This document shows positions 1 to 27,815 of a DNA stretch of 64,000 nt, in pieces. This DNA is from Lactobacillales bacterium. Its GTDB lineage: Bacteria; Bacillota_I; Bacilli_A; RF39; UBA660. The stretch spans positions 109,654-173,653 of the forward strand of contig SVAG01000002.1 of NCBI GenBank assembly GCA_015059545.1, written 5' to 3'. The first letter of the stretch is position 1. Every line of letters starts with the position of its first letter. A model generated the notes under the pieces. The model searched no databases and was not told the origin of the DNA. It was given only the letters and a program-made list of their open reading frames with translations. A program made the position numbers and the translations under genes.

Positions 1-640
1 CTTCATTAATAGCTTGTTCTTTTAAGATTGCTCTTTCTTTATCTAATTCTTCAGTTGGAACATTTTCTCTTTTTACATATAATGGTCTCATAGCTGCTGC
101 ATGCATTGAAACATCTTTAGCTGTTTCTTCATTAGCATTATTAACAATTGTTAAAACTGCTATTTTACCACCCATATGAATGTATTCTCCAAATGATTCT
201 GAATCAGATTTAGTTACTTTAACGAATCTTCTTAATGATAATTTTTCTCCAATTTTTGCTGTTTTAGCAATAATTAAATCATTAATAGTTCCTTCTTCAG
301 CTTTTTCTTCTAATAATTCTTCTACTGTTGTAGCACTTGAAGATAAGATAGTATTTAAGATTGTATTTACTAATTCTTTAAATTCTTCATTTTTTGCTAC
401 GAAGTCAGTTTCTGAATTAACTTCTACGATTGCAGCATCATTTCCATTAATTAATATTGCTGCTAAACCTTCAGCTGCTATACGATCTGCTTTTTTTGCA
501 GCTTTAGATATACCTTTTTCTCTTAACCAATCCATTGATGCGTTTATATCACCATTGTTTGCTTCTAATGCTTTTTTACAATCAAGCATTCCTGCTCCAG
601 ATTTTTCTCTTAATTCTTTTACTAGACTAGCACTAATCAT
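1..640 (-). CDS. tsf: Elongation factor Ts, partial (3' end lies outside the window)
   Basis: The reverse-strand translation from ATG (complement of 638-640) reads MISASLVKELREKSGAGMLDCKKALEANNGDINASMDWLREKGISKAAKKADRIAAEGLAAI..., a typical EF-Ts N-terminus. A GGGAG RBS lies 7 nt upstream. The gene directly follows rpsB as in most bacteria. The + strand ORF at 180..728 is its antisense artifact. Confidence 0.85.
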   Translation of the reverse strand, partial: MISASLVKELREKSGAGMLDCKKALEANNGDINASMDWLREKGISKAAKKADRIAAEGLAAILINGNDAAIVEVNSETDFVAKNEEFKELVNTILNTILSSSATTVEELLEEKAEEGTINDLIIAKTAKIGEKLSLRRFVKVTKSDSESFGEYIHMGGKIAVLTIVNNANEETAKDVSMHAAAMRPLYVKRENVPTEELDKERAILKEQAINE

Positions 641-9360: not shown

Positions 9361-10380
9361 TTATATTCTTTTTATATATTTTTCTAATACTTTACCTTCT
9401 ATTATTTCTTCTTTATTAAAATTATATTTTTCAATTATATCAAAAGGATTAGAAAAATCATTTTTATTTTTTGAAAGATCATTTATTTGATACATTGCTA
9501 ATTCTTTATCTTGTAAATATATATTATAAAATTCTAAAGCAAGTACCATTCCATATGTATATTCTAATATAGAGTATATTTGATTATATTTTTGTCTAAA
9601 ATCTAAATTTGTAATAATATCTTCTTTTAATAAATTTGATAAATCTTTTATGTTTTCTTCTAAATTATCTAGATATTCATATTTTACATTTTGAAAATCA
9701 ATCTTATTTTCAACTAAATAATCACCAAATACTAATTCTAAAAAATGGGAATATATTTCACATAAATAATTGCGTCTACATTCATTTGAATTATTAAAAT
9801 CATAAATGTGCCCAACTTCATGAATAGAATTAACTGCTGTAAATATAGAACCATAATCTTCTACTAATACATATGGTGTAAAATAATTACCATAAAAAGT
9901 TAGTCCATCATTTACAAAATCATATTCTTTGCTACTTAAATAAATAAATTTATTATTTTTTACACATTTTTTAAATGATTCAAATATTTTTTTATCAAAT
10001 TTATTAAGAAATTCAGCTACTAGTTCCTGGCTTTCTTCAATACTCATTTCTGTTAGACAATACTTAAATTGTTGATTTGGATAATTATTTAATATATATA
10101 TATAATTATCAGTTAATTCGTCATTAAAATCATAATTACTAGTATAAAAATTCTTTTGATTTCTTTCTATTTCTGTATAATCTTTAGAAAAAGTTTTATA
10201 TGAATAATTATCTACATTTAAAATATTATCTAATTGTATGATATTTGCTAATTCATATAGTTTTTCTAAATCGGATATTAATTTATCATACATTGATTTA
10301 GAGTGACATCTTTTCATTCTGCGAACTATATTTAAAATATCACTTCTAACCATTTGTTCTATTAAAATATCTGTTTCCAT
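9361..10380 (-). CDS. Hypothetical protein with an HExxH metallopeptidase-like motif (SIHEVGHIYDF)
   Basis: The ORF encodes 339 aa with no TM segment. Only the HEVGH motif is recognisable. Confidence 0.4.
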   Translation of the reverse strand: METDILIEQMVRSDILNIVRRMKRCHSKSMYDKLISDLEKLYELANIIQLDNILNVDNYSYKTFSKDYTEIERNQKNFYTSNYDFNDELTDNYIYILNNYPNQQFKYCLTEMSIEESQELVAEFLNKFDKKIFESFKKCVKNNKFIYLSSKEYDFVNDGLTFYGNYFTPYVLVEDYGSIFTAVNSIHEVGHIYDFNNSNECRRNYLCEIYSHFLELVFGDYLVENKIDFQNVKYEYLDNLEENIKDLSNLLKEDIITNLDFRQKYNQIYSILEYTYGMVLALEFYNIYLQDKELAMYQINDLSKNKNDFSNPFDIIEKYNFNKEEIIEGKVLEKYIKRI

Positions 10381-10476
10381 AAAACCCCAACCTTTTTAAA
10401 TATTATAAATATATTTTATTAAAAGTCAAGAAGTATAACTGTTAAATAATTACATATTATAATTATAGGTGTTTAT

Positions 10477-10950
10477 ATGAATATAGGTTTATATTTTTTA
10501 ATATTTATTTCTAAAGTTATTGAAAATGGACTTTCTACTTTAAGACTTATTGTAGTGGCTAATGGTAAAAAAATATTAGGTGCTTTTTTACAATTTGTGA
10601 TTTCTTTAGTATGGGTACTTGTTACTGGTATTGTTGTAAATGATTTAATTGAAGATCCATTAAAAGTAATATTTTTTGCATTAGGATCACTAGTTGGTTC
10701 TTATGCTGGAAGTATAATAGAAGAAAAAATAGCACTCGGTGATATATTAATAAATTGTATTACTAATAATATTGAAGTAAATAATTATATTAAATCAATT
10801 GGATATAATACTTCTATTTTAAAAACTGATAATAAAGATATATTATTATTTGTTATTCCAAGAAGAAAGAAAATTGATATTATAAACAATATTAAATTAA
10901 TCGATAAAGATGTATTAATATTCAGTGAAAAAGTTAAGAATTTCTCTTAA
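10477..10950 (+). CDS. Small membrane protein (UPF0316/DUF2179-like architecture)
   Basis: This 157-aa protein is one of the few plus-strand genes. It has three N-terminal hydrophobic helices followed by a soluble C-terminal domain. The family assignment is from memory only. Confidence 0.4.
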   Translation: MNIGLYFLIFISKVIENGLSTLRLIVVANGKKILGAFLQFVISLVWVLVTGIVVNDLIEDPLKVIFFALGSLVGSYAGSIIEEKIALGDILINCITNNIEVNNYIKSIGYNTSILKTDNKDILLFVIPRRKKIDIINNIKLIDKDVLIFSEKVKNFS

Positions 10951-20062: not shown

Positions 20063-21010
20063 ATGACTATAACACTTAAAGTTAGTGAAAATACTAAAAA
20101 AGAAATGGTTGAATTTTTTGAAGATTTTAAAAGGCCTAAAACTCCTCAATATGCAGTTTTTCAAGCAGATGATGCTGATACGGTTGTAACTTTATATGAA
20201 TCTGGTAAAGCTGTATTTCAAGGTAAGAGTGCTGATATATCTGCTCGTATTTGGATAGAAAGAGAAAGACATTTAAATCCAAATAAAACAATCGATATGA
20301 AAAACAGTGAAGATAAAACAAAAGAAAAAAAAGAAATCATTGTTGATCCAAAAATATATAATTCTAATTCAATTGGTTCTGATGAAGTTGGAACTGGAGA
20401 TTATTTTGGACCTATTGTTGTAACAAGTGCTTATGTTACCAAAGAAGACATTAAATTTTTAGAAGAATTAGGTGTCAAAGATTCAAAAAAATTAGATGAT
20501 AATAAAATATTAGAAATAGTTCCACAAATTATTAAAAGAATTCCATATAGTAGTATGATTTTAACTAACAAAGAATATAATTTAAAATATAATGATGATA
20601 TAAATATGAATAAAATAAAAGCTATATTACATAACAAAGTTTTATTAGATTTAAGTAGTAAATACAAAGCTGATTATATAATAGTTGATGAATTTGCTAA
20701 AGCTCCTATTTATTATAACTATTTAAAAACTTCTAGTAATGTATGCAAGGGTATCACTTTTATGACTAAAGCTGAAAGTAAAGTTTTATCAGTCGCTTGT
20801 GCTTCATTAATTAGTAGATATATATTTATTAATGAATTCGATAAATTAAGTGAAAGTGTTGATGAATTCTTACCTAAAGGAGCAAGTGATAAAGTTGATT
20901 TAGTTGGAGCCAATATAGTTAAAAAATATGGTTTTGATAAATTAAGTGAAATCGCTAAATTAAATTTTAAAAATACTGAGAAAATAAAAAACATTATAGA
21001 TAATCTATAA
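20063..21010 (+). CDS. rnhC: Ribonuclease HIII
   Basis: An N-terminal TBP-like substrate-binding domain is followed by an RNase H domain (GSDEVGTGDYFGP). The protein is 315 aa. The gene is convergent with murC. Confidence 0.8.
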   Translation: MTITLKVSENTKKEMVEFFEDFKRPKTPQYAVFQADDADTVVTLYESGKAVFQGKSADISARIWIERERHLNPNKTIDMKNSEDKTKEKKEIIVDPKIYNSNSIGSDEVGTGDYFGPIVVTSAYVTKEDIKFLEELGVKDSKKLDDNKILEIVPQIIKRIPYSSMILTNKEYNLKYNDDINMNKIKAILHNKVLLDLSSKYKADYIIVDEFAKAPIYYNYLKTSSNVCKGITFMTKAESKVLSVACASLISRYIFINEFDKLSESVDEFLPKGASDKVDLVGANIVKKYGFDKLSEIAKLNFKNTEKIKNIIDNL

Positions 21011-22309
21011 TGTTTTTAATTTTTCTATTAAATCATTTTCTATTTTTGATATATCATTTGGACTCATAAATATATATACTGTAGGTTCATCATTTAATAA
21101 ACTTTCAGCTTCATCTATATTTATATGATATCCATTATCTAAATTATCAATTATTATATTTGAAGTAATATTTGGATAATCTTCTTGTTTTTCTCTAGCA
21201 GGGTGAATATCCATAATATATGATTTATCTGCAATATTTAATACTTTAACTAAATCATCAGCAAATTCTTCAGTTCTTGTGAATGTATGTGGTTGAAAAA
21301 TTGCAACTACTTCTTTTTTTGGATATTTTTGTTTAATTGCTTTTAGTGTTGCTTTTACTTCATTTGGATGATGTGCATAATCATCTATTATAATATTTTC
21401 TCCTACTATAGTTTCTGAAAATCTTCTTTTTGCTCCTTTAAATGTTTTAAAGATTTTTGATACTTCTTTAGCATCTATTCTTTCATAGTAACAAATTGCT
21501 ATAACTGCTAATGCATCAAGTAACATATGTTTACCATATATTGGTAAATCAAAGAATCCATAGTAATTTCCTTCTACTTCTACTTCAAAGCTTGTTCCAT
21601 CTTCCTTATAGTTTACATTTGTTGCTCTTATATCATTATCTTCATCTAATCCATAATAGAATATTGCTGGATTAATTTCTAATGAATGAGTATATGGATC
21701 ATCTCCACATGCTATTACCATTTTTTCTGCTTTATTAGCAAATTCTTGATATGCATCTATTACATCATCTATATCTTTATAATAATCAACATGATCTAAA
21801 TCTATATTTGTAATTACTGCATAATATGGATTATATTCTAAGAAATGTCTTTTATATTCACATGATTCTAGTACAAAAAATTCATTATCTAAAGCTGCAT
21901 ATCCTGTTCCATCTCCAATTAGATAATTAGCTCCTTTTATATTATTTAAAACTAATGACATCATTGATGTTGTAGTAGTTTTCCCGTGGCATCCTGCTAC
22001 ACATATAGTTTTAAATTTATTTGTTAATTTTCCTACCATTTCAACATATGAATATATATCTAATCCTAGTTCATTAGCTTTTACTATTTCTGGGTGATCA
22101 TCTTTAATAGATTCACCTTTAACTATTTTCATATTTTCTTTTATATTATTTTCATCATATGGAAAGAATTCTATTCCTTTTTCTATAAGTCCTTGTTCTG
22201 TAAAAAAATGTTTATCTACATCACTACCTTGTACATTATACCCTAATTCTTTCATTATTTGAGCTAGAGAACTCATTCCAGCTCCTTTTATACCTACAAA
22301 ATGATACAT
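21005..22309 (-). CDS. murC: UDP-N-acetylmuramate--L-alanine ligase
   Basis: The N-terminus is MYHFVGIKGAGMSSLAQI, and the Mur ligase P-loop is GCHGKTTTTSM. Confidence 0.9.
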   Translation of the reverse strand: MYHFVGIKGAGMSSLAQIMKELGYNVQGSDVDKHFFTEQGLIEKGIEFFPYDENNIKENMKIVKGESIKDDHPEIVKANELGLDIYSYVEMVGKLTNKFKTICVAGCHGKTTTTSMMSLVLNNIKGANYLIGDGTGYAALDNEFFVLESCEYKRHFLEYNPYYAVITNIDLDHVDYYKDIDDVIDAYQEFANKAEKMVIACGDDPYTHSLEINPAIFYYGLDEDNDIRATNVNYKEDGTSFEVEVEGNYYGFFDLPIYGKHMLLDALAVIAICYYERIDAKEVSKIFKTFKGAKRRFSETIVGENIIIDDYAHHPNEVKATLKAIKQKYPKKEVVAIFQPHTFTRTEEFADDLVKVLNIADKSYIMDIHPAREKQEDYPNITSNIIIDNLDNGYHINIDEAESLLNDEPTVYIFMSPNDISKIENDLIEKLKTL

Positions 22310-22342: not shown

Positions 22343-23473
22343 TTAGTTTTTGTCAATTAATCTATTATATTCTGCATTCAAATAATCATCTGTCATACCT
22401 GCTATATAATCAATTACTATTCTTTCATTAGAATTATTTTCTAAATATAATTTATCCATTTCATTTATAAATACTTTAAATATTTTTTCTTCTTTTATAT
22501 TTTCATTTAAATGTTTTAAATATGTATTAAATAAAAATCTAAATTGTTTTTCATAAAATTCTATTTGTTCTTTAGTATTTGCTTTAGCATATATACTTTT
22601 ATAATTAAAATCTTTTAATTCTTTAATAGCATTAAATACTTCTTTAGTCATTGTAATATATGGTTTATCATAACTATTTTTTATTATATCTAGTACTATT
22701 GTATTAATTATTTCACTATTTGTTGTACCTAATACATTAGTTATATTATTTGGTATTTCTTCTTTTTTTAATATCCCAAGTCTTACAGCATCTTCGATAT
22801 CTCTTCCAATATATCCTATTACATCACTTATTCTTACTACACAACCTTCTAATGTCATTGGTACTAATTTTTTATTTTGTGATTCATCTATATAACTATT
22901 ATTATACTCATTTAAAAATTCTTCTTTTGTTTTTTTCTTAGGTTCATACTTATCTTGTACAAATTCTCCGTTATGACACATTATACCATCTAATACTTGT
23001 AATGATATATTGCTTCCTAATCCTTTATTTTCTACATACATTAATGTTCTTACACTTTGGATATTATGATTAAAATATCCTTCATTATTTTCTAAACTTA
23101 TTTTATTTAATATTGATTCACCTATATGTCCATATGGAACATGTCCTAAGTCATGACCTAAAGCTGCAGCTTCTATTAAGTCTTCGTTTAGATTTAAAGC
23201 TCTACCTATTGTTCTTGCTATTTTAGAAACCATTTGAACATGTGTCATTCTTTTACTTATATTATCATTATCATTATTTGAAAATACTTGTGTTTTATCT
23301 ATATATCTAGTATATGATAATGAATATATAATTCTATCTATGTCTCTAAAATAAGCTGGTCTTATATCATCTATTTTATCTTCATTAAGTCTTATTGATT
23401 CACTACTTTTAGTAGCAAACTTACTTAAATTATTTTCTTTATTTAATATATTTTGTTTTATATTTTCTAACAT
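22343..23473 (-). CDS. dgt: dGTPase-like HD-domain phosphohydrolase
   Basis: The HD motif is AALGHDLGHVPYGH. The protein is 376 aa. Confidence 0.75.
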   Translation of the reverse strand: MLENIKQNILNKENNLSKFATKSSESIRLNEDKIDDIRPAYFRDIDRIIYSLSYTRYIDKTQVFSNNDNDNISKRMTHVQMVSKIARTIGRALNLNEDLIEAAALGHDLGHVPYGHIGESILNKISLENNEGYFNHNIQSVRTLMYVENKGLGSNISLQVLDGIMCHNGEFVQDKYEPKKKTKEEFLNEYNNSYIDESQNKKLVPMTLEGCVVRISDVIGYIGRDIEDAVRLGILKKEEIPNNITNVLGTTNSEIINTIVLDIIKNSYDKPYITMTKEVFNAIKELKDFNYKSIYAKANTKEQIEFYEKQFRFLFNTYLKHLNENIKEEKIFKVFINEMDKLYLENNSNERIVIDYIAGMTDDYLNAEYNRLIDKN

Positions 23474-23517
23474 ATTACCACCTACTTTAATTTTATCATA
23501 ATATAAATAAAAAGAAA

Positions 23518-23536
23518 ATATCAGAAATTCTGATAT
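23518..23536 (-). terminator. Perfect 8-bp AT-rich hairpin (atatcaga-aat-tctgatat) abutting the alaS-like stop, with a short T-run on the minus strand
   Basis: The inverted repeat is visible in the sequence. It may act as an attenuator between the alaS-like gene and dgt. Confidence 0.3.
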
Positions 23537-25281
23537 TAATCTTCTAATATAGCCTTTATTCTTCTAACACCTGCACTACTTGCTTCTTCTTTTTTGATTT
23601 TGAATGTACCTAACTCATTTGTATTTTTTACATGTGGTCCTCCACATAATTCATGTGATACATCACCGATACTATATACAGTTACAATATCAGGATATTT
23701 TTCTATAAACATACATTCTGCACCTGAAGCAATGGCTTCTTCTTTACTCATTTCTTTTTTAGTTACTTCTAATCCTTCACTAATCCATTTATTTACTAAT
23801 TCTTCAGTTTTTTGTTTTTCTTCATCTGTAAGTTTATGATCACATGAGAAGTCAAATCTTAATCTATCACTTGTTATATTTGATCCTTTTTGATGTACAT
23901 CTTTATTTACTACTACTTTTAATGCTGCATTAAGTAAATGTGTTGCTGTATGATATTTAGTTTCTACTTCACTATTTCCAGATAATCCACCTTTAAATTT
24001 ACCTGCTGAAGCTGTTCTTGATTTTTCTTGATGTTCCTTAAATTTATTATTAAATCCTTCTTCGTCTACTTTTAAATTTCTTTCACTAGCAAGTTCTATT
24101 GTAAGTTCTATAGGGAATCCATAAGTATCGAATAATCTGAATGCTGAAGTTCCATCTATATCTTCATTATTTCTAACTACTTTTTCAAATTCTCTTAATC
24201 CTTTTTCAAGTGTTCTATTGAATTTGATTTTTTCATTATTAAGTACTTCTAATACTACTTGTTCATTATCTACTAATTCTTTATAGTATTTATTATATTT
24301 ATTTAATATTAATTTAGATATTTGTTGTTCAAAATCACTATTAACATCAATATTTAACTTTTTAGCATGTCTTATTGCACGTCTTAGTAATCTTCTTAAA
24401 ATATATCCTTGATCTGTATTAGATGGTTTTATTCCTGCTGGATCTGCTGAAATAAATACAGCTGTTCTTAAATGGTCAGCAATTATTCTCATGCTAGTTT
24501 CATTACCTTCGTATGGTAAGTTAGATATTTTTTCTATTAATTCAATTACATCTTTCCATACGCTTGATAGGTAATTATCATTTACACCTTCTAATATTGC
24601 AGTTGTTCTTTCAACACCCATTCCTGTATCAACATTTTTCTTAGGAAGTTCTGTTACATTTCCTTCACTATCTTTATAGTATTGCATGAAAACATTATTC
24701 CAAATTTCTACCCATCTTTCATCTTCTGGATCAAATGTTGATGGAATTTCATCATCACTTCTAAAATAGAATATTTCTGTATCTGGTCCACATGGTCCAG
24801 TTTCTCCTGCAATCCAGAAATTATCTTCTACAGTTCTAGCTATTCTTTTCTCTTTAATTCCTAAACTTAACCATTTATCATGACTTTCTTGATCAAATGG
24901 AATTAAATCATTTCCTGCAAATACTGTTACAGCTAATTTTTCTACAGGAATATTTAAATGTTTTGTTAAAAATTCAAAACTCCATTCAATACTTTCATTC
25001 TTAAAATAATCTCCTAAACTCCAATTACCTAACATTTCAAAAAATGTATGATGTGTTGTATCTCCAATAGCATCTAAGTCATTTGTTCTTATACATTTTT
25101 GATAATCACATAGTCTTGTTCCATATGGATGAGTTTCTCCCATTAAATATGGAATAAGTGGCTGCATACCTGCAGTATTAAATAAAACTGATGGATCATT
25201 TTCTGGTACTACAGGTGATGATGGTATTTGTTTATGTCCTTTTTCTATAAAGAAATTTATATATAAGTCTTTTAAATTCAT
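23536..25281 (-). CDS. alaS: Alanyl-tRNA synthetase homolog, short form (catalytic, tRNA-recognition and editing core; no C-Ala domain)
   Basis: The N-terminus is MNLKDLYINFFIEKGHKQIPSSPVVPENDPSVLFNTAGMQP. The protein has HHTFFEMLGNWSLGDYFK, then the editing motifs HTATHLL (HxxxH) and ELCGGPH (CxxxH). It stops ~10 aa later at 581 aa. Confidence 0.75.
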   Translation of the reverse strand: MNLKDLYINFFIEKGHKQIPSSPVVPENDPSVLFNTAGMQPLIPYLMGETHPYGTRLCDYQKCIRTNDLDAIGDTTHHTFFEMLGNWSLGDYFKNESIEWSFEFLTKHLNIPVEKLAVTVFAGNDLIPFDQESHDKWLSLGIKEKRIARTVEDNFWIAGETGPCGPDTEIFYFRSDDEIPSTFDPEDERWVEIWNNVFMQYYKDSEGNVTELPKKNVDTGMGVERTTAILEGVNDNYLSSVWKDVIELIEKISNLPYEGNETSMRIIADHLRTAVFISADPAGIKPSNTDQGYILRRLLRRAIRHAKKLNIDVNSDFEQQISKLILNKYNKYYKELVDNEQVVLEVLNNEKIKFNRTLEKGLREFEKVVRNNEDIDGTSAFRLFDTYGFPIELTIELASERNLKVDEEGFNNKFKEHQEKSRTASAGKFKGGLSGNSEVETKYHTATHLLNAALKVVVNKDVHQKGSNITSDRLRFDFSCDHKLTDEEKQKTEELVNKWISEGLEVTKKEMSKEEAIASGAECMFIEKYPDIVTVYSIGDVSHELCGGPHVKNTNELGTFKIKKEEASSAGVRRIKAILED

Positions 25282-25282
25282 T

Positions 25283-25927
25283 TTACTTCTCTCCTTCTAT
25301 GATGTTTGTTATTTCATCTACTACTTCTTCTAATGTCATATTAGTAGTATCTATATATATTTGATTTTCTGTTTTTGTTAATGCTCCAAATTCTTTATGC
25401 ATATCATTATAATCTCTTGCTTCCATACTTTTATATACTTCTTCATATGGAACTTCTATATTTAGCTCTTTATTTTGTCTAAATCTTCTATTAGCCCTTT
25501 CTTCTAATGTTGCATCTAAATATATTTTAATTTCTGCATTAGGAAATACTACTGTTGTTGTATCTCTTCCTTCTAATATTACATCTTTTCCTACTGACAT
25601 TTTTCTTTGTAATTCTACTAAATTTTTTCTTACATCTACTATATTTGATATAAATGAAGCTCTATTAGATACTTCATTTGTTCTAATATCTAATGTTACT
25701 TCTTGTCCATCTAAAAACACTTTTTTATCTTCTGTTATTTCAATATCTAAGTTTTTAGATAGTTCTATTAAATCTTCTTCTTTTTCTACATTGTTTCTAA
25801 TAGCTTTTAAAGCTAAACATCTATATGTAGCTCCAGTATCTACTTTCGTAAACCCTAATTTTTCTCCTATTATATTTGTTACTGTACTTTTTCCACTTCC
25901 TGCTGGACCATCGATTGCTACTACCAT
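25283..25927 (-). CDS. cmk: Cytidylate kinase
   Basis: The N-terminus is MVVAIDGPAGSGKSTVTNIIGEKLGF, followed by DTGATYR. Confidence 0.85.
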   Translation of the reverse strand: MVVAIDGPAGSGKSTVTNIIGEKLGFTKVDTGATYRCLALKAIRNNVEKEEDLIELSKNLDIEITEDKKVFLDGQEVTLDIRTNEVSNRASFISNIVDVRKNLVELQRKMSVGKDVILEGRDTTTVVFPNAEIKIYLDATLEERANRRFRQNKELNIEVPYEEVYKSMEARDYNDMHKEFGALTKTENQIYIDTTNMTLEEVVDEITNIIEGEK

Positions 25928-26439
25928 TTTATCACCTCTATTATATTTTTTACTTTTTGTTCTAACTCTTCTATAGAACTTTTATTTTCTATTTTAAAAT
26001 CATATATATTATAATTATCTAATGCTGTTTCTGTTATATGATTTTTTTCCATATTATTTAAACTATTTTCTCTACCAATAATATTTATAACTGATACATT
26101 TTCATATTTTTCTTTTATACAATTAATTTCTTCTATAAATCTTGCATCACTTACTATTATAACATCAAAATAATTTTTGTACACTTCTATATCTTGTAAT
26201 AATCTATTTATTAAAAATTTATTATCTATTTTTTTTACATAATCGCCTATTTCTTGCAAAAATGTTCTAGGTTTAGTATTTTCATTTCCATCCCATTTTA
26301 ATATATTTTTAGCATATTCTTTTAAATGTGATGCATATGAAATAGTTATTGTTTTTTTATCTTTTAAATTATTTTCTATTATACTAGCTACTCTATTTTT
26401 TCCACTTTCTGCTTTTCCACTTAATATTATTATTTTCAT
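25921..26439 (-). CDS. P-loop protein of the phage-type dNMP kinase-like family
   Basis: The N-terminus MKIIILSGKAESGKN resembles T4 Dnk (MKLIFLSGVKRSGKD). I moved the start to ATG (complement of 26437-26439), which has a GGAGGAA RBS; the track start (TTG) lies inside that RBS. The ORF overlaps cmk by 7 nt. Confidence 0.5.
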   Translation of the reverse strand: MKIIILSGKAESGKNRVASIIENNLKDKKTITISYASHLKEYAKNILKWDGNENTKPRTFLQEIGDYVKKIDNKFLINRLLQDIEVYKNYFDVIIVSDARFIEEINCIKEKYENVSVINIIGRENSLNNMEKNHITETALDNYNIYDFKIENKSSIEELEQKVKNIIEVIKW

Positions 26440-26455
26440 AAATTCCTCCAACAAA

Positions 26456-26640
26456 AGAAAAAACCACTAGCATTTTCTAGGAACGAAAAGCCGTGGTACC
26501 ATCCTAATTTATTCTTAATTAATATAACGGTTAGACCGGTAGTTATTACTACACTAAAAGATAGCTTTCACTAATTATTTTTGTTAGTTTACACCGACCA
26601 CTAACTCTCTTTAAAAAATATATTAGTTACTTATTCTTTA
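26456..26640 (-). promoter_or_regulatory. Putative T-box riboswitch leader
   Basis: The minus-strand RNA contains AAAUUAGGAUGGUACCACGG, matching the T-box consensus AAUUAGGGUGGUACCGCGG. It also has an upstream AGAGAG and an AGUGAAAGCUA stem-I-like element. An ACCAC...CUAG-loop-CUAG-UGGU hairpin plus U-run ends 10 nt before the RBS of the dNMP-kinase-like gene. The region is GC-richer than its surroundings. Confidence 0.55.
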
Positions 26641-26648
26641 TCATTGTT

Positions 26649-27815
26649 TTATCTATCATAATTTAAAATATCATATTTTTCATCAAAGAATAATATTAAT
26701 GCTTTACATGCCGCAATTACAGGTGTTGCGATTACCATTCCAAGTATTCCAAAGAAATGTCCAAATACTAATAATCCTATCATTACTGTAACTGGATGTA
26801 ATTTAGCTGATTTACTCATTATTAATGGTTGTATTAAATTTCCTTCTAAAAGTTGAATTACTACAATACATACTAATACTATAATTCCTGTAGTTGTTGA
26901 TTGTGAGAATGCTACTATAACTGCTGGTGCTCCACCTATATATGGTCCTGCATAAGGAATTATATTTGTAAGTCCACAGAATAATCCAAATAGTAATGGA
27001 GCTTGAAGTCCTGCTATTGCAAAACATATTGAGCTAACTACAAATACTAATGAACAATCTGCAAGTGCTCCATTTATAAATCTTCTAAATGCTGTATTTA
27101 TTTCATTAAATATATCTCTAGTACTACTTTGTAATTTTTTAGGGAATAAAGTTATAACAGAATCTGATACATTATTAAAATTAATAAGTAAGAAGAATCC
27201 AATTATTAATCCAACTAATAAATTACCTATACCTGAGAATAATGATTTTACAAAATTAATAGTTAATTCTGGTAATGATGATGTTAAATTTGTACCTATA
27301 CTTTCTATGTTTTCAAATAATTTCAATTTAAATTCATCAACATCTAAATTATCAATATTTTTTAAATTATTAAGTACTCCATCTAACCATGATTTTATAT
27401 TATCAAATACATTTGGCATTATTTTTACAAAATCATTTATTTGATCTCCCAATAATGGTATTAAAGAACCTAGAATTATACTAATTATTCCTATAAAAAT
27501 TACATATGTTATAGCTGTACCTAATGTTCTTCTAACACCTTTTCTTTGTAACATTGATACAAATGGATCAAATAACCAAGCTACAAAGAAACCAATAAAT
27601 AATGGTGAAATAATTTTTAAAATTGTTAATACATTTTGTTTTACGTGTAACTCTTTTAAAATTATAATAGATATATAAGCACCTACTATAAATAATAAAA
27701 CTGTGAATATTTTTAAAATTGTTTTTGATAATGAAACAACTTCATTAATACCTCTTACATCAAGTTCTGCTTTTTTCTTTTTATTCTCTTTTTTAAATAA
27801 CATACATATCACCAC
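26649..27815 (-). CDS. AI-2E family transporter (UPF0118/PerM-like permease)
   Basis: The 388-aa protein has multiple TM helices and the architecture and motifs of the YueF/YtvI type. Confidence 0.65.
   Translation of the reverse strand: MVICMLFKKENKKKKAELDVRGINEVVSLSKTILKIFTVLLFIVGAYISIIILKELHVKQNVLTILKIISPLFIGFFVAWLFDPFVSMLQRKGVRRTLGTAITYVIFIGIISIILGSLIPLLGDQINDFVKIMPNVFDNIKSWLDGVLNNLKNIDNLDVDEFKLKLFENIESIGTNLTSSLPELTINFVKSLFSGIGNLLVGLIIGFFLLINFNNVSDSVITLFPKKLQSSTRDIFNEINTAFRRFINGALADCSLVFVVSSICFAIAGLQAPLLFGLFCGLTNIIPYAGPYIGGAPAVIVAFSQSTTTGIIVLVCIVVIQLLEGNLIQPLIMSKSAKLHPVTVMIGLLVFGHFFGILGMVIATPVIAACKALILFFDEKYDILNYDR

Follow-up and report, generated by a model that had tools for sequence, protein, structure and literature searches.

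A compact T-box leader without a Stem III hairpin, predicted to respond to tRNA-Ala, ahead of a kinase-cmk-alaS operon

Which tRNA does a T-box-like leader sense, and which gene does it serve, when the first two genes behind it encode kinases and only the third, a short alaS, encodes an aminoacyl-tRNA synthetase? The question is raised by a locus in the window, that is, the whole 64-kb stretch of DNA analysed here; all coordinates are positions in that window, and the leader and its operon are read on the minus strand. According to the analysis presented here, the leader is very probably a transcription-attenuating T-box specific for tRNA-Ala that controls the kinase-cmk-alaS unit, with alaS as its target. 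An alanine T-box before alaS is ordinary in function, and what is unusual is the reduced architecture, in which Stem III is missing.

The Rfam T-box model RF00230 aligns end to end (model positions 1-219) with positions 26653..26476 of the minus strand, at 101.2 bits and E 3.7e-21, which exceeds the 93 bits set as the curated gathering score. An earlier note on this DNA, made from the letters alone, had called a T-box leader here and had proposed this Infernal search as its check, and the search returned a significant match. Only two Rfam families were detected in the 64-kb window, the other being a ribosomal protein L21 leader (RF00559, 58798-58863 on the minus strand, 44.6 bits vs a gathering score of 36). 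Judged from its sequence, the leader is a genuine tRNA-sensing T-box riboswitch, with a match far beyond chance. From Stem I to the terminator U-run it covers 26453..26653, as delimited by RF00230 and by the folds of the terminator and U-run, so that the element does lie in the interval 26640..26456 where it had been placed but extends slightly beyond it on both sides. The individual landmarks that had been listed were all recovered: the T-box consensus-like sequence AAAUUAGGAUGGUACCACGG at 26510..26491, the Stem-I-like elements AGAGAG at 26610..26605 and GAAAGCUA at 26569..26562, and a hairpin (26497..26463) with the U-run UUUUUUCUUUU (26463..26453) before the Shine-Dalgarno sequence GGAGG (26449..26445).

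The gene layout also agrees with what had been described, since the 172-aa reading frame overlaps cmk by 7 nt and cmk is separated from alaS by 1 nt, forming one unit. The first gene (25921..26439, minus strand, ATG at 26439) encodes a P-loop kinase of the T4 Gp1 dNMP kinase / animal phosphomevalonate kinase family, with matches to Pfam PF04275 P-mevalo_kinase (39.4 vs 33.8 bits), PF21448 DNMK (38.5 vs 27.1 bits), PHROG 139 (E 5e-31), and the PDB entries 3ch4 and 1dek (about E 4e-5 each). Against the NCBIfam animal PMK equivalog it scores only 25, below the cutoff of 188, and the Gp1/PMK family profiles do not define the substrate specificity of the kinase. The second gene, cmk (25283..25927, minus strand), encodes a (d)CMP kinase (Pfam Cytidylate_kin, 226 bits; TIGR00017, 215 vs 135.55), and the third, alaS (23536..25281, minus strand), a 581-aa alanine--tRNA ligase. 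This last protein matches NCBIfam NF002436 (PRK01584) at 780 bits vs a cutoff of 529, over profile positions 5-594 of 595, and is therefore a recognised short form of AlaRS and not a fragment. Its only Pfam domains are tRNA-synt_2c (3-431) and tRNA_SAD (533-575), which provide the catalytic and editing parts without C-Ala, and it matches AlaRS catalytic fragments in the PDB at E 2.5e-95.

A hairpin, AUAUCAGA-AUU-UCUGAUAU (23536..23518), overlaps the alaS stop codon and is followed by a U-rich tract, the whole feature spanning 23505..23536 on the minus strand. It forms the core of a 56-nt region (23545..23490) that folds at -11.9 kcal/mol, and it was missed by a consensus terminator scan because it contains fewer than 3 G-C pairs. 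A promoter-like TATGAT lies after alaS and ahead of a gene for an HD-domain dGTPase-like protein; given the hairpin, the U-tract and this TATGAT, the T-box unit probably ends there. The genes that follow encode the HD-domain dGTP triphosphohydrolase-like protein (22343-23473, minus strand) and MurC (21005-22309, minus strand), an enzyme that consumes L-alanine; both seem to be transcribed from a promoter of their own, and relatives do not share this set of neighbouring genes.

Stem I is complete over 26647..26553, with a GA (K-turn) motif, a specifier loop with an S-turn (AGUA/GAA), an AG bulge and a distal loop. The Rfam alignment, script-verified helices and covariation place in it a base helix AC/GU, the GA motif AAUGAUA (26645..26639), the helices P1 (AAAGA/UCUUU) and P2 (ACUAAU/AUUAGU), the AG bulge already located as AGAGAG, a distal helix GUUAGU/ACUAAC and a distal loop GGUCGGUGUAA (26599..26589). 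The 3' side of the specifier loop divides into GAA-A-GCU-A, in which the alanine codon GCU occupies 26565..26563 and is followed by A26562. Related leaders were gathered from species-level genomes and from metagenomes (individual loci are denoted by L numbers), and Stem I was parsed by hand in nine of them, with the helices checked by a script. In all nine, GCU plus one nucleotide forms the 3' end of the specifier loop, and P1, P2 and the distal helix pair despite wholly different P1 and P2 sequences; in L013 the nucleotide after the specifier is a C and not the usual purine.

The same codon emerges from a 37-sequence alignment (A2), where the specifier columns read GCU in 27 of the 28 leaders that stand ahead of an AlaRS, kinase or cmk gene, the single other row (L018) being due to an alignment slip of 3 columns. 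As an internal control, the same columns read ACU in all nine leaders of ThrRS genes. The earlier note had left GCU and ACU both as candidates; on the Rfam columns and the alanine rows the specifier of the window leader is GCU, whereas the ACU falls in the loop of a small hairpin. A GCU specifier agrees with alaS, which is the only aminoacyl-tRNA synthetase gene in the unit. It is also the usual alanine specifier of T-boxes (PMC2494555; PMC7778990), in which specifiers with a 3'-U are favoured for alanine (PMC7778990), and the alaS T-boxes of Bacillus subtilis and Clostridium acetobutylicum combine it with a UGGU bulge (PMC4695836).

At the other end of the leader, an antiterminator can be folded over 26478..26506 from helix A1 (UAGGA/UCCUA), the 7-nt bulge UGGUACC (26501..26495) and helix A2 (ACGG/UCGU), with a stability of -3.7 kcal/mol when folded alone. 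An intrinsic terminator, composed of the hairpin noted above and its U-run (U6CU4; 26453..26497 in all), folds at -12.2 kcal/mol, and its 5' strand takes up the ACC of the bulge together with the 3' strands of the antiterminator, so that the two structures are mutually exclusive. An alternative pairing of this kind, which the earlier note had regarded as decisive for the T-box call, can thus be drawn, and it is conserved in relatives. The difference between -12.2 and -3.7 kcal/mol is the asymmetry expected if uncharged tRNA must hold the antiterminator.

The UGGU of the bulge fits the A73 discriminator base of characterised tRNA-Ala species, as found in B. subtilis and C. acetobutylicum (PMC4695836). 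Because ARAGORN found no tRNA-Ala gene in the window or in 29 related loci, both the anticodon and the discriminator pairings rest on these characterised tRNAs. A tRNA gene was detected by Rfam on an unrelated metagenomic contig with a compact T-box (L195, 3268-3341, minus strand, 63.7 bits); by eye it is a tRNA-Ala(UGC) with G3:U70 and A73, which fits a UGGU bulge, but it does not belong to the organism of the window.

The switching mechanism that can be proposed is as follows. The GCU of Stem I would pair with tRNA-Ala's anticodon, while the platform formed by the AG bulge and distal loop would stack on the elbow of the tRNA. An uncharged tRNA could pair through its 3' ACCA with the UGGU of the 7-nt bulge and stabilise the weak antiterminator, which, as long as it is held, would let RNA polymerase continue into the operon. 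With a charged tRNA, the more stable terminator hairpin with its U-run would form and transcription would end 10-15 nt before the ribosome-binding site. A build-up of uncharged tRNA-Ala would in this way switch the alaS operon on, with the two kinases as co-transcribed passengers. The sequences show the motifs, the alternative folds, their covariation, the match between specifier and downstream gene and the conservation of the operon, and from these we infer tRNA binding, the regulatory outcome, a promoter and a discriminator that works without Stem III.

For transcription of the leader, a consensus scan gave a candidate sigma-70 promoter, TTAATA-18-TATGAT (26670..26699, minus strand), which is weak (9 of 12 consensus matches) and lies inside the 3' end of the gene for an AI-2E transporter, in an AT-rich region where such matches occur at chance level. 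The scan for consensus hexamers thus established no leader promoter, and read-through from the AI-2E gene may supply the transcript; in L009, L090 and L092, hexamers that look more promoter-like by eye lie directly ahead of the leaders.

Between Stem I and the antiterminator, the leader departs from the usual plan. What remains of Stem II is a 4-bp hairpin, GUAG-UAAUAA-CUAC (26539..26552, minus strand), without an S-turn, most of the model Stem II being deleted in the Rfam alignment, as it also is for L088, L092 and L068; this small hairpin shows compensatory variation in L013 and L088 and is missing in L090, L092, L068, L009 and L018. It is followed at 26525..26538 by a Stem IIA hairpin, CGG-UCUAA-CCG, with the F-box CCGUUA ending at 26525, which Rfam aligns with high posterior probability and whose CGUUA is invariant in 37 leaders. 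The pairing that would complete the IIB pseudoknot shows a marginal excess only, with a mean run of 3.77 vs about 3.6 in controls. In the place of Stem III lies an AU-rich linker, UAUUAAUUAAGAAUAAAU, of 18 nt (26507..26524, minus strand), which is unstructured according to the Rfam alignment and RNAfold.

When a Stem III with RRRxG/AA flanks was sought upstream of A1, no hairpin was present, and Rfam reduces 17 model positions to 0 nt; Stem III is likewise deleted in the Rfam alignments of L088, L092, L068, L206, L190 and L112, and the spacing between F-box and bulge is 22-23 nt in close relatives. The Rfam T-box consensus reads AAG-uG-(Stem III)-cAAaUa-GGG, which without the hairpin leaves exactly 8 nt from AAG to A1, and compact leaders have 7-8 nt at this place together with an invariant AAG. 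With this spacing and this AAG, Stem III looks precisely excised with its purine flanks kept; the AAG and the downstream A's match the canonical flanks, except that the fifth flank position is A/U and not G. By its predicted fold the leader is therefore a compact T-box composed of Stem I, a vestigial Stem II, IIA/F-box and the Stem III flanks, without the Stem III hairpin.

A search of the open-access full-text literature found no description of a natural T-box without Stem III. The discriminator was reportedly defined by Li and co-workers in 2019 as 5'-RRRxG-Stem III-AA-3'. In glyQS, Stem III and its 5'-RRRxG...AA-3' flanks have been called an integral and indispensable part of the discriminator, needed for binding of the tRNA 3' end (PMC7583486), and a leader without Stem III could in principle be impaired for this reason; a 2024 paper states that Stem III has been found in every T-box identified so far. 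Truncation experiments, by contrast, suggest that the Stem III helix itself is of little importance.

Related leaders provide a comparative test of the fold. Nine helices of the window leader were mapped onto 37 distinct leaders (alignment A2), where 82.8% of the cells are paired vs 68.7% in column shuffles (none of 500 reaches the observed value), and pairing falls to 40-54% when the partners are slid by 1-3 columns. Compensatory changes on both sides occur in 32 of the 38 pairs. Pairing is highest in the distal helix of Stem I (99.1%, with compensatory changes in 6 of 6 pairs), followed by A1 (97.3%), IIA (96.3%), and P1 and A2 (88% each), the last two also with compensatory changes. Two further calculations are given for the record: in a first MAFFT alignment the 3' half of Stem I was misaligned, for which reason RNAalifold detected no helices beyond the distal helix and IIA, and folding a 46-nt segment gave A1 plus A2 in 71 of the 121 leaders listed, a count of no evidential use because the segment also held terminator strands.

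With nhmmer, the window leader recovered from 86 loci only same-species copies and L013, which indicates that a sequence search alone is too insensitive. Rfam at its gathering threshold recovered L013 alone among 13 relatives, and even its permissive mode gave no match in L090, L009, L018, L144, L129 and L195. In the collected loci, a DNA signature of the short spacing (CGTTA, 8-11 nt, AAG, 7-8 nt, AGGNTGGNACC) picked out every known leader and gave no other match, and it found at least 120 matches in a metagenome collection. Most of the matches listed show the AG bulge, distal loop and U-run that mark T-boxes, their median GC is 0.29, and a terminator with U-run is present in 109 of 121 leaders. 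The linkers, 18-22 nt long, have a minimum free energy of 0 in 91 of the 120 matches listed (RNAfold), while a small linker hairpin appears in about 10 of the 120, mostly GC-rich false positives (L176, L132, L152); about a dozen of the listed matches lack T-box hallmarks.

The genes downstream of the listed matches include alaS operons, thrS, pheS, serS, ileS, tyrS, a ProRS-like and a leuC-like gene, and the specifiers, taken from Rfam alignments or identified by eye, fit them: GCU for alanine, ACU for threonine, UUC for phenylalanine, UCU for serine, AUC for isoleucine and CUC for leucine, together with UAC and CCU. At 17 metagenomic loci, genes initially taken for alaS proved to be ThrRS genes whose BLAST match came via the common editing/SAD domain only. 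Stem III is deleted in the Rfam alignments of leaders before ileS, serS and one gene of unknown function, which score 73-84 bits. Of the 15 compact leaders examined, three exceed the Rfam cutoff of 93 and most members score 49-84 bits, so that compact T-boxes are probably under-annotated in these gut lineages. The variant without Stem III seems to be widespread in AT-rich gut Bacilli. We lean, by a modest degree, towards regarding it as a widespread and undescribed T-box class that would sense aminoacylation without Stem III, serve many amino acids and lie mostly below the Rfam cutoff; in such a class the purine flanks would be joined directly and the IIA/F-box would adjoin the antiterminator.

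Some members of this set deserve separate mention. L140 carries a compact pheS T-box (202-400, plus strand, 121.9 bits) and also a canonical one (10206-10481, minus strand, 98.1 bits), whose Stem II bears a long insertion and whose Stem III is normal, so that not every organism with the compact form uses it throughout its genome; for the compact leader, Rfam also gives, at low confidence, a second alignment that contains a mini Stem III. A compact leader in L195, about 150 nt upstream of tyrS, has a Stem I that appears to be very short, where UAC lies in a small hairpin, and resembles actinobacterial T-boxes with ultrashort Stem I, yet it has a terminator-like U-run and gives no Rfam match at E <= 0.01. 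The ThrRS proteins of nine loci (L100, L106, L107, L109, L113, L143, L150, L192 and L210) start at the editing motif (HSCAH), seemingly without TGS, and their leaders have ACU and a UGGU bulge, while the ThrRS of L144 has a TGS domain and its leader a UGGA bulge. The serS leader of L112 is a UCU compact T-box with a UGGU bulge; as tRNA-Ser usually carries G73, the fourth position would need a G-U wobble.

The strongest challenge to this description concerns the identity of the CGG...CCG hairpin. Were it Stem III itself, the leader would be a variant of known architecture, similar to glyQS or C. acetobutylicum alaS, without Stem II and IIA/B and with a long 3' linker. Such alaS leaders are documented (PMC4695836), five of nine close leaders have one hairpin only between Stem I and the antiterminator, and the marginal IIB pairing would also be accounted for. 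We nevertheless consider this assignment unlikely, because the invariant CGUUA after the 3' strand of the hairpin matches the F-box, where Rfam aligns it confidently, and because in the pheS leader of L140, with the same spacing, the hairpin is preceded immediately by a complete Stem II that includes a GAA/AGUA S-turn, an arrangement that puts the hairpin at the IIA/B position. Moreover, the hairpin lies 17-18 nt from A1, while the Rfam consensus puts Stem III about 5-6 nt away, and its flanks misfit RRRxG...AA, which the invariant AAG further downstream fits.

If the hairpin is IIA and Stem III is truly absent, the requirement for Stem III and its flanks reported for glyQS (PMC7583486), along with the absence of the leader from L007, L010, L011, L022, L034 and L087, could be taken to mean that the leader is a decaying relic which, after the loss of Stem III and most of Stem II, has ceased to sense tRNA and whose role is at most that of a constitutive, partial terminator. 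This is very improbable, as compensatory changes are kept across nine helices, the T-box bulge is invariant, the terminator and U-run persist in most of the matches listed, and the specifier tracks the downstream gene for six amino acids. Still more remote, to the point of being nearly negligible, is a response to tRNA-Thr through the ACU in AAUAACUA (at about 26544), or else translational control by sequestration of the ribosome-binding site, for which a weak pairing of the U-run with GGAGGAA in the full-length minimum-free-energy fold might be cited. The ACU is a loop sequence of the small Stem II hairpin (26552..26539), outside the specifier loop, and is not conserved, L013 having AAUAAUCA and L088 AAUAGCUA there, while real ThrRS leaders of the same architecture have ACU exactly where the window leader has GCU; and the leader ends in a classic hairpin and U-run platform with the Shine-Dalgarno sequence outside the terminator.

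An alanine-specific compact T-box can be compared with several known systems. The alaS leader of B. subtilis, in which UGGU serves an A73 discriminator and IIA/B is present, is similar in its GCU and UGGU, its GA motif, AG bulge and distal loop in Stem I, its IIA with F-box, its Stem II without Loop E, and, by prediction, its control by termination and antitermination (PMC4695836); it differs in having a full-length Stem II, a Stem III and alaS as first gene, whereas the window leader has a 4-bp Stem II, no Stem III and two kinase genes before alaS. The leaders of C. acetobutylicum alaS, also with GCU and UGGU, and of Bacillus glyQS are natural, reduced and functional T-boxes (PMC4695836), but they drop Stem II and IIA/B and keep Stem III, the reverse of what is seen here. 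With respect to the RF00230 consensus and its discriminator, the T-box sequence, the 7-nt bulge, A1, A2, the invariant AAG and the A's are shared, and the differences lie in the helix of 0 nt between the flanks and in the fifth flank position. A conserved and covarying family, with specifiers that match its genes, in which the flanks remain but the helix is gone would be a natural experiment on Stem III, separating the roles of the two, and would also test Stem III as a transcriptional pause site.

The position of the leader before kinase genes, which the earlier note had found unusual, is so only in part: the arrangement recurs in relatives and has a streptococcal precedent. Passenger genes have already been recorded in streptococcal alaS T-box operons, and in SAG0809 and spr1241 an alanine T-box precedes a non-aaRS gene described as 'Ala-tRNA ligase related hypothetical' (PMC2494555); the passenger genes differ, those of the window being the Gp1/PMK kinase and cmk, and the leaders are likened by gene context. 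Many relatives have kinase, (cmk) and alaS behind a GCU T-box, and a gene order that runs from the AI-2E gene through kinase and (cmk) to alaS is found repeatedly among relatives. GCU leaders among the metagenome matches listed stand before the kinase in 13 cases, before cmk in three and directly before alaS in six, and alaS also follows the T-box directly in L092. Among the matches listed, 13 kinase-first or cmk-first loci are long enough to judge, and 12 of them have alaS further on. It is therefore alaS that is consistently targeted, with the kinases as passengers, which settles the annotation of the operon: specifier GCU, target alaS.

In L141, L153, L165 and L185 the kinase is linked to alaS behind a GCU T-box although the AlaRS is only 37-40% identical to that of the window, and the pairing of the two genes is thus old. 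The leader itself is more variable, being present in relatives with a gap of 210-280 nt and missing from those whose AI-2E and kinase genes abut; the six loci without a T-box named above have AI-2E-kinase gaps of -1 to about 114 nt. As it is missing from several close relatives, the leader has been lost repeatedly, or gained, in the clade, and is dispensable there.

Proteins identical or nearly identical to the AlaRS of the window occur on many gut-metagenome contigs labelled as Bacilli or Lactobacillales MAGs. Short AlaRS proteins of about 580 aa without C-Ala and with 50-55% identity were also seen in DPANN archaea, CPR/Patescibacteria, Lentisphaeria, spirochaetes, Christensenellales and gut Bacilli (L029, L033, L035, L038-L041, L044, L045, L047, L053, L056-L058, L062-L066 and others), a distribution that suggests, from sequence similarity, that the short form has spread horizontally, widely and across domains. 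Finally, glmS ribozymes and RT-14 RNA, as assigned by Rfam, flank related alaS loci (L016, 404-554, minus strand; L017, 653-802, minus strand; L011, 9543-9680, plus strand).
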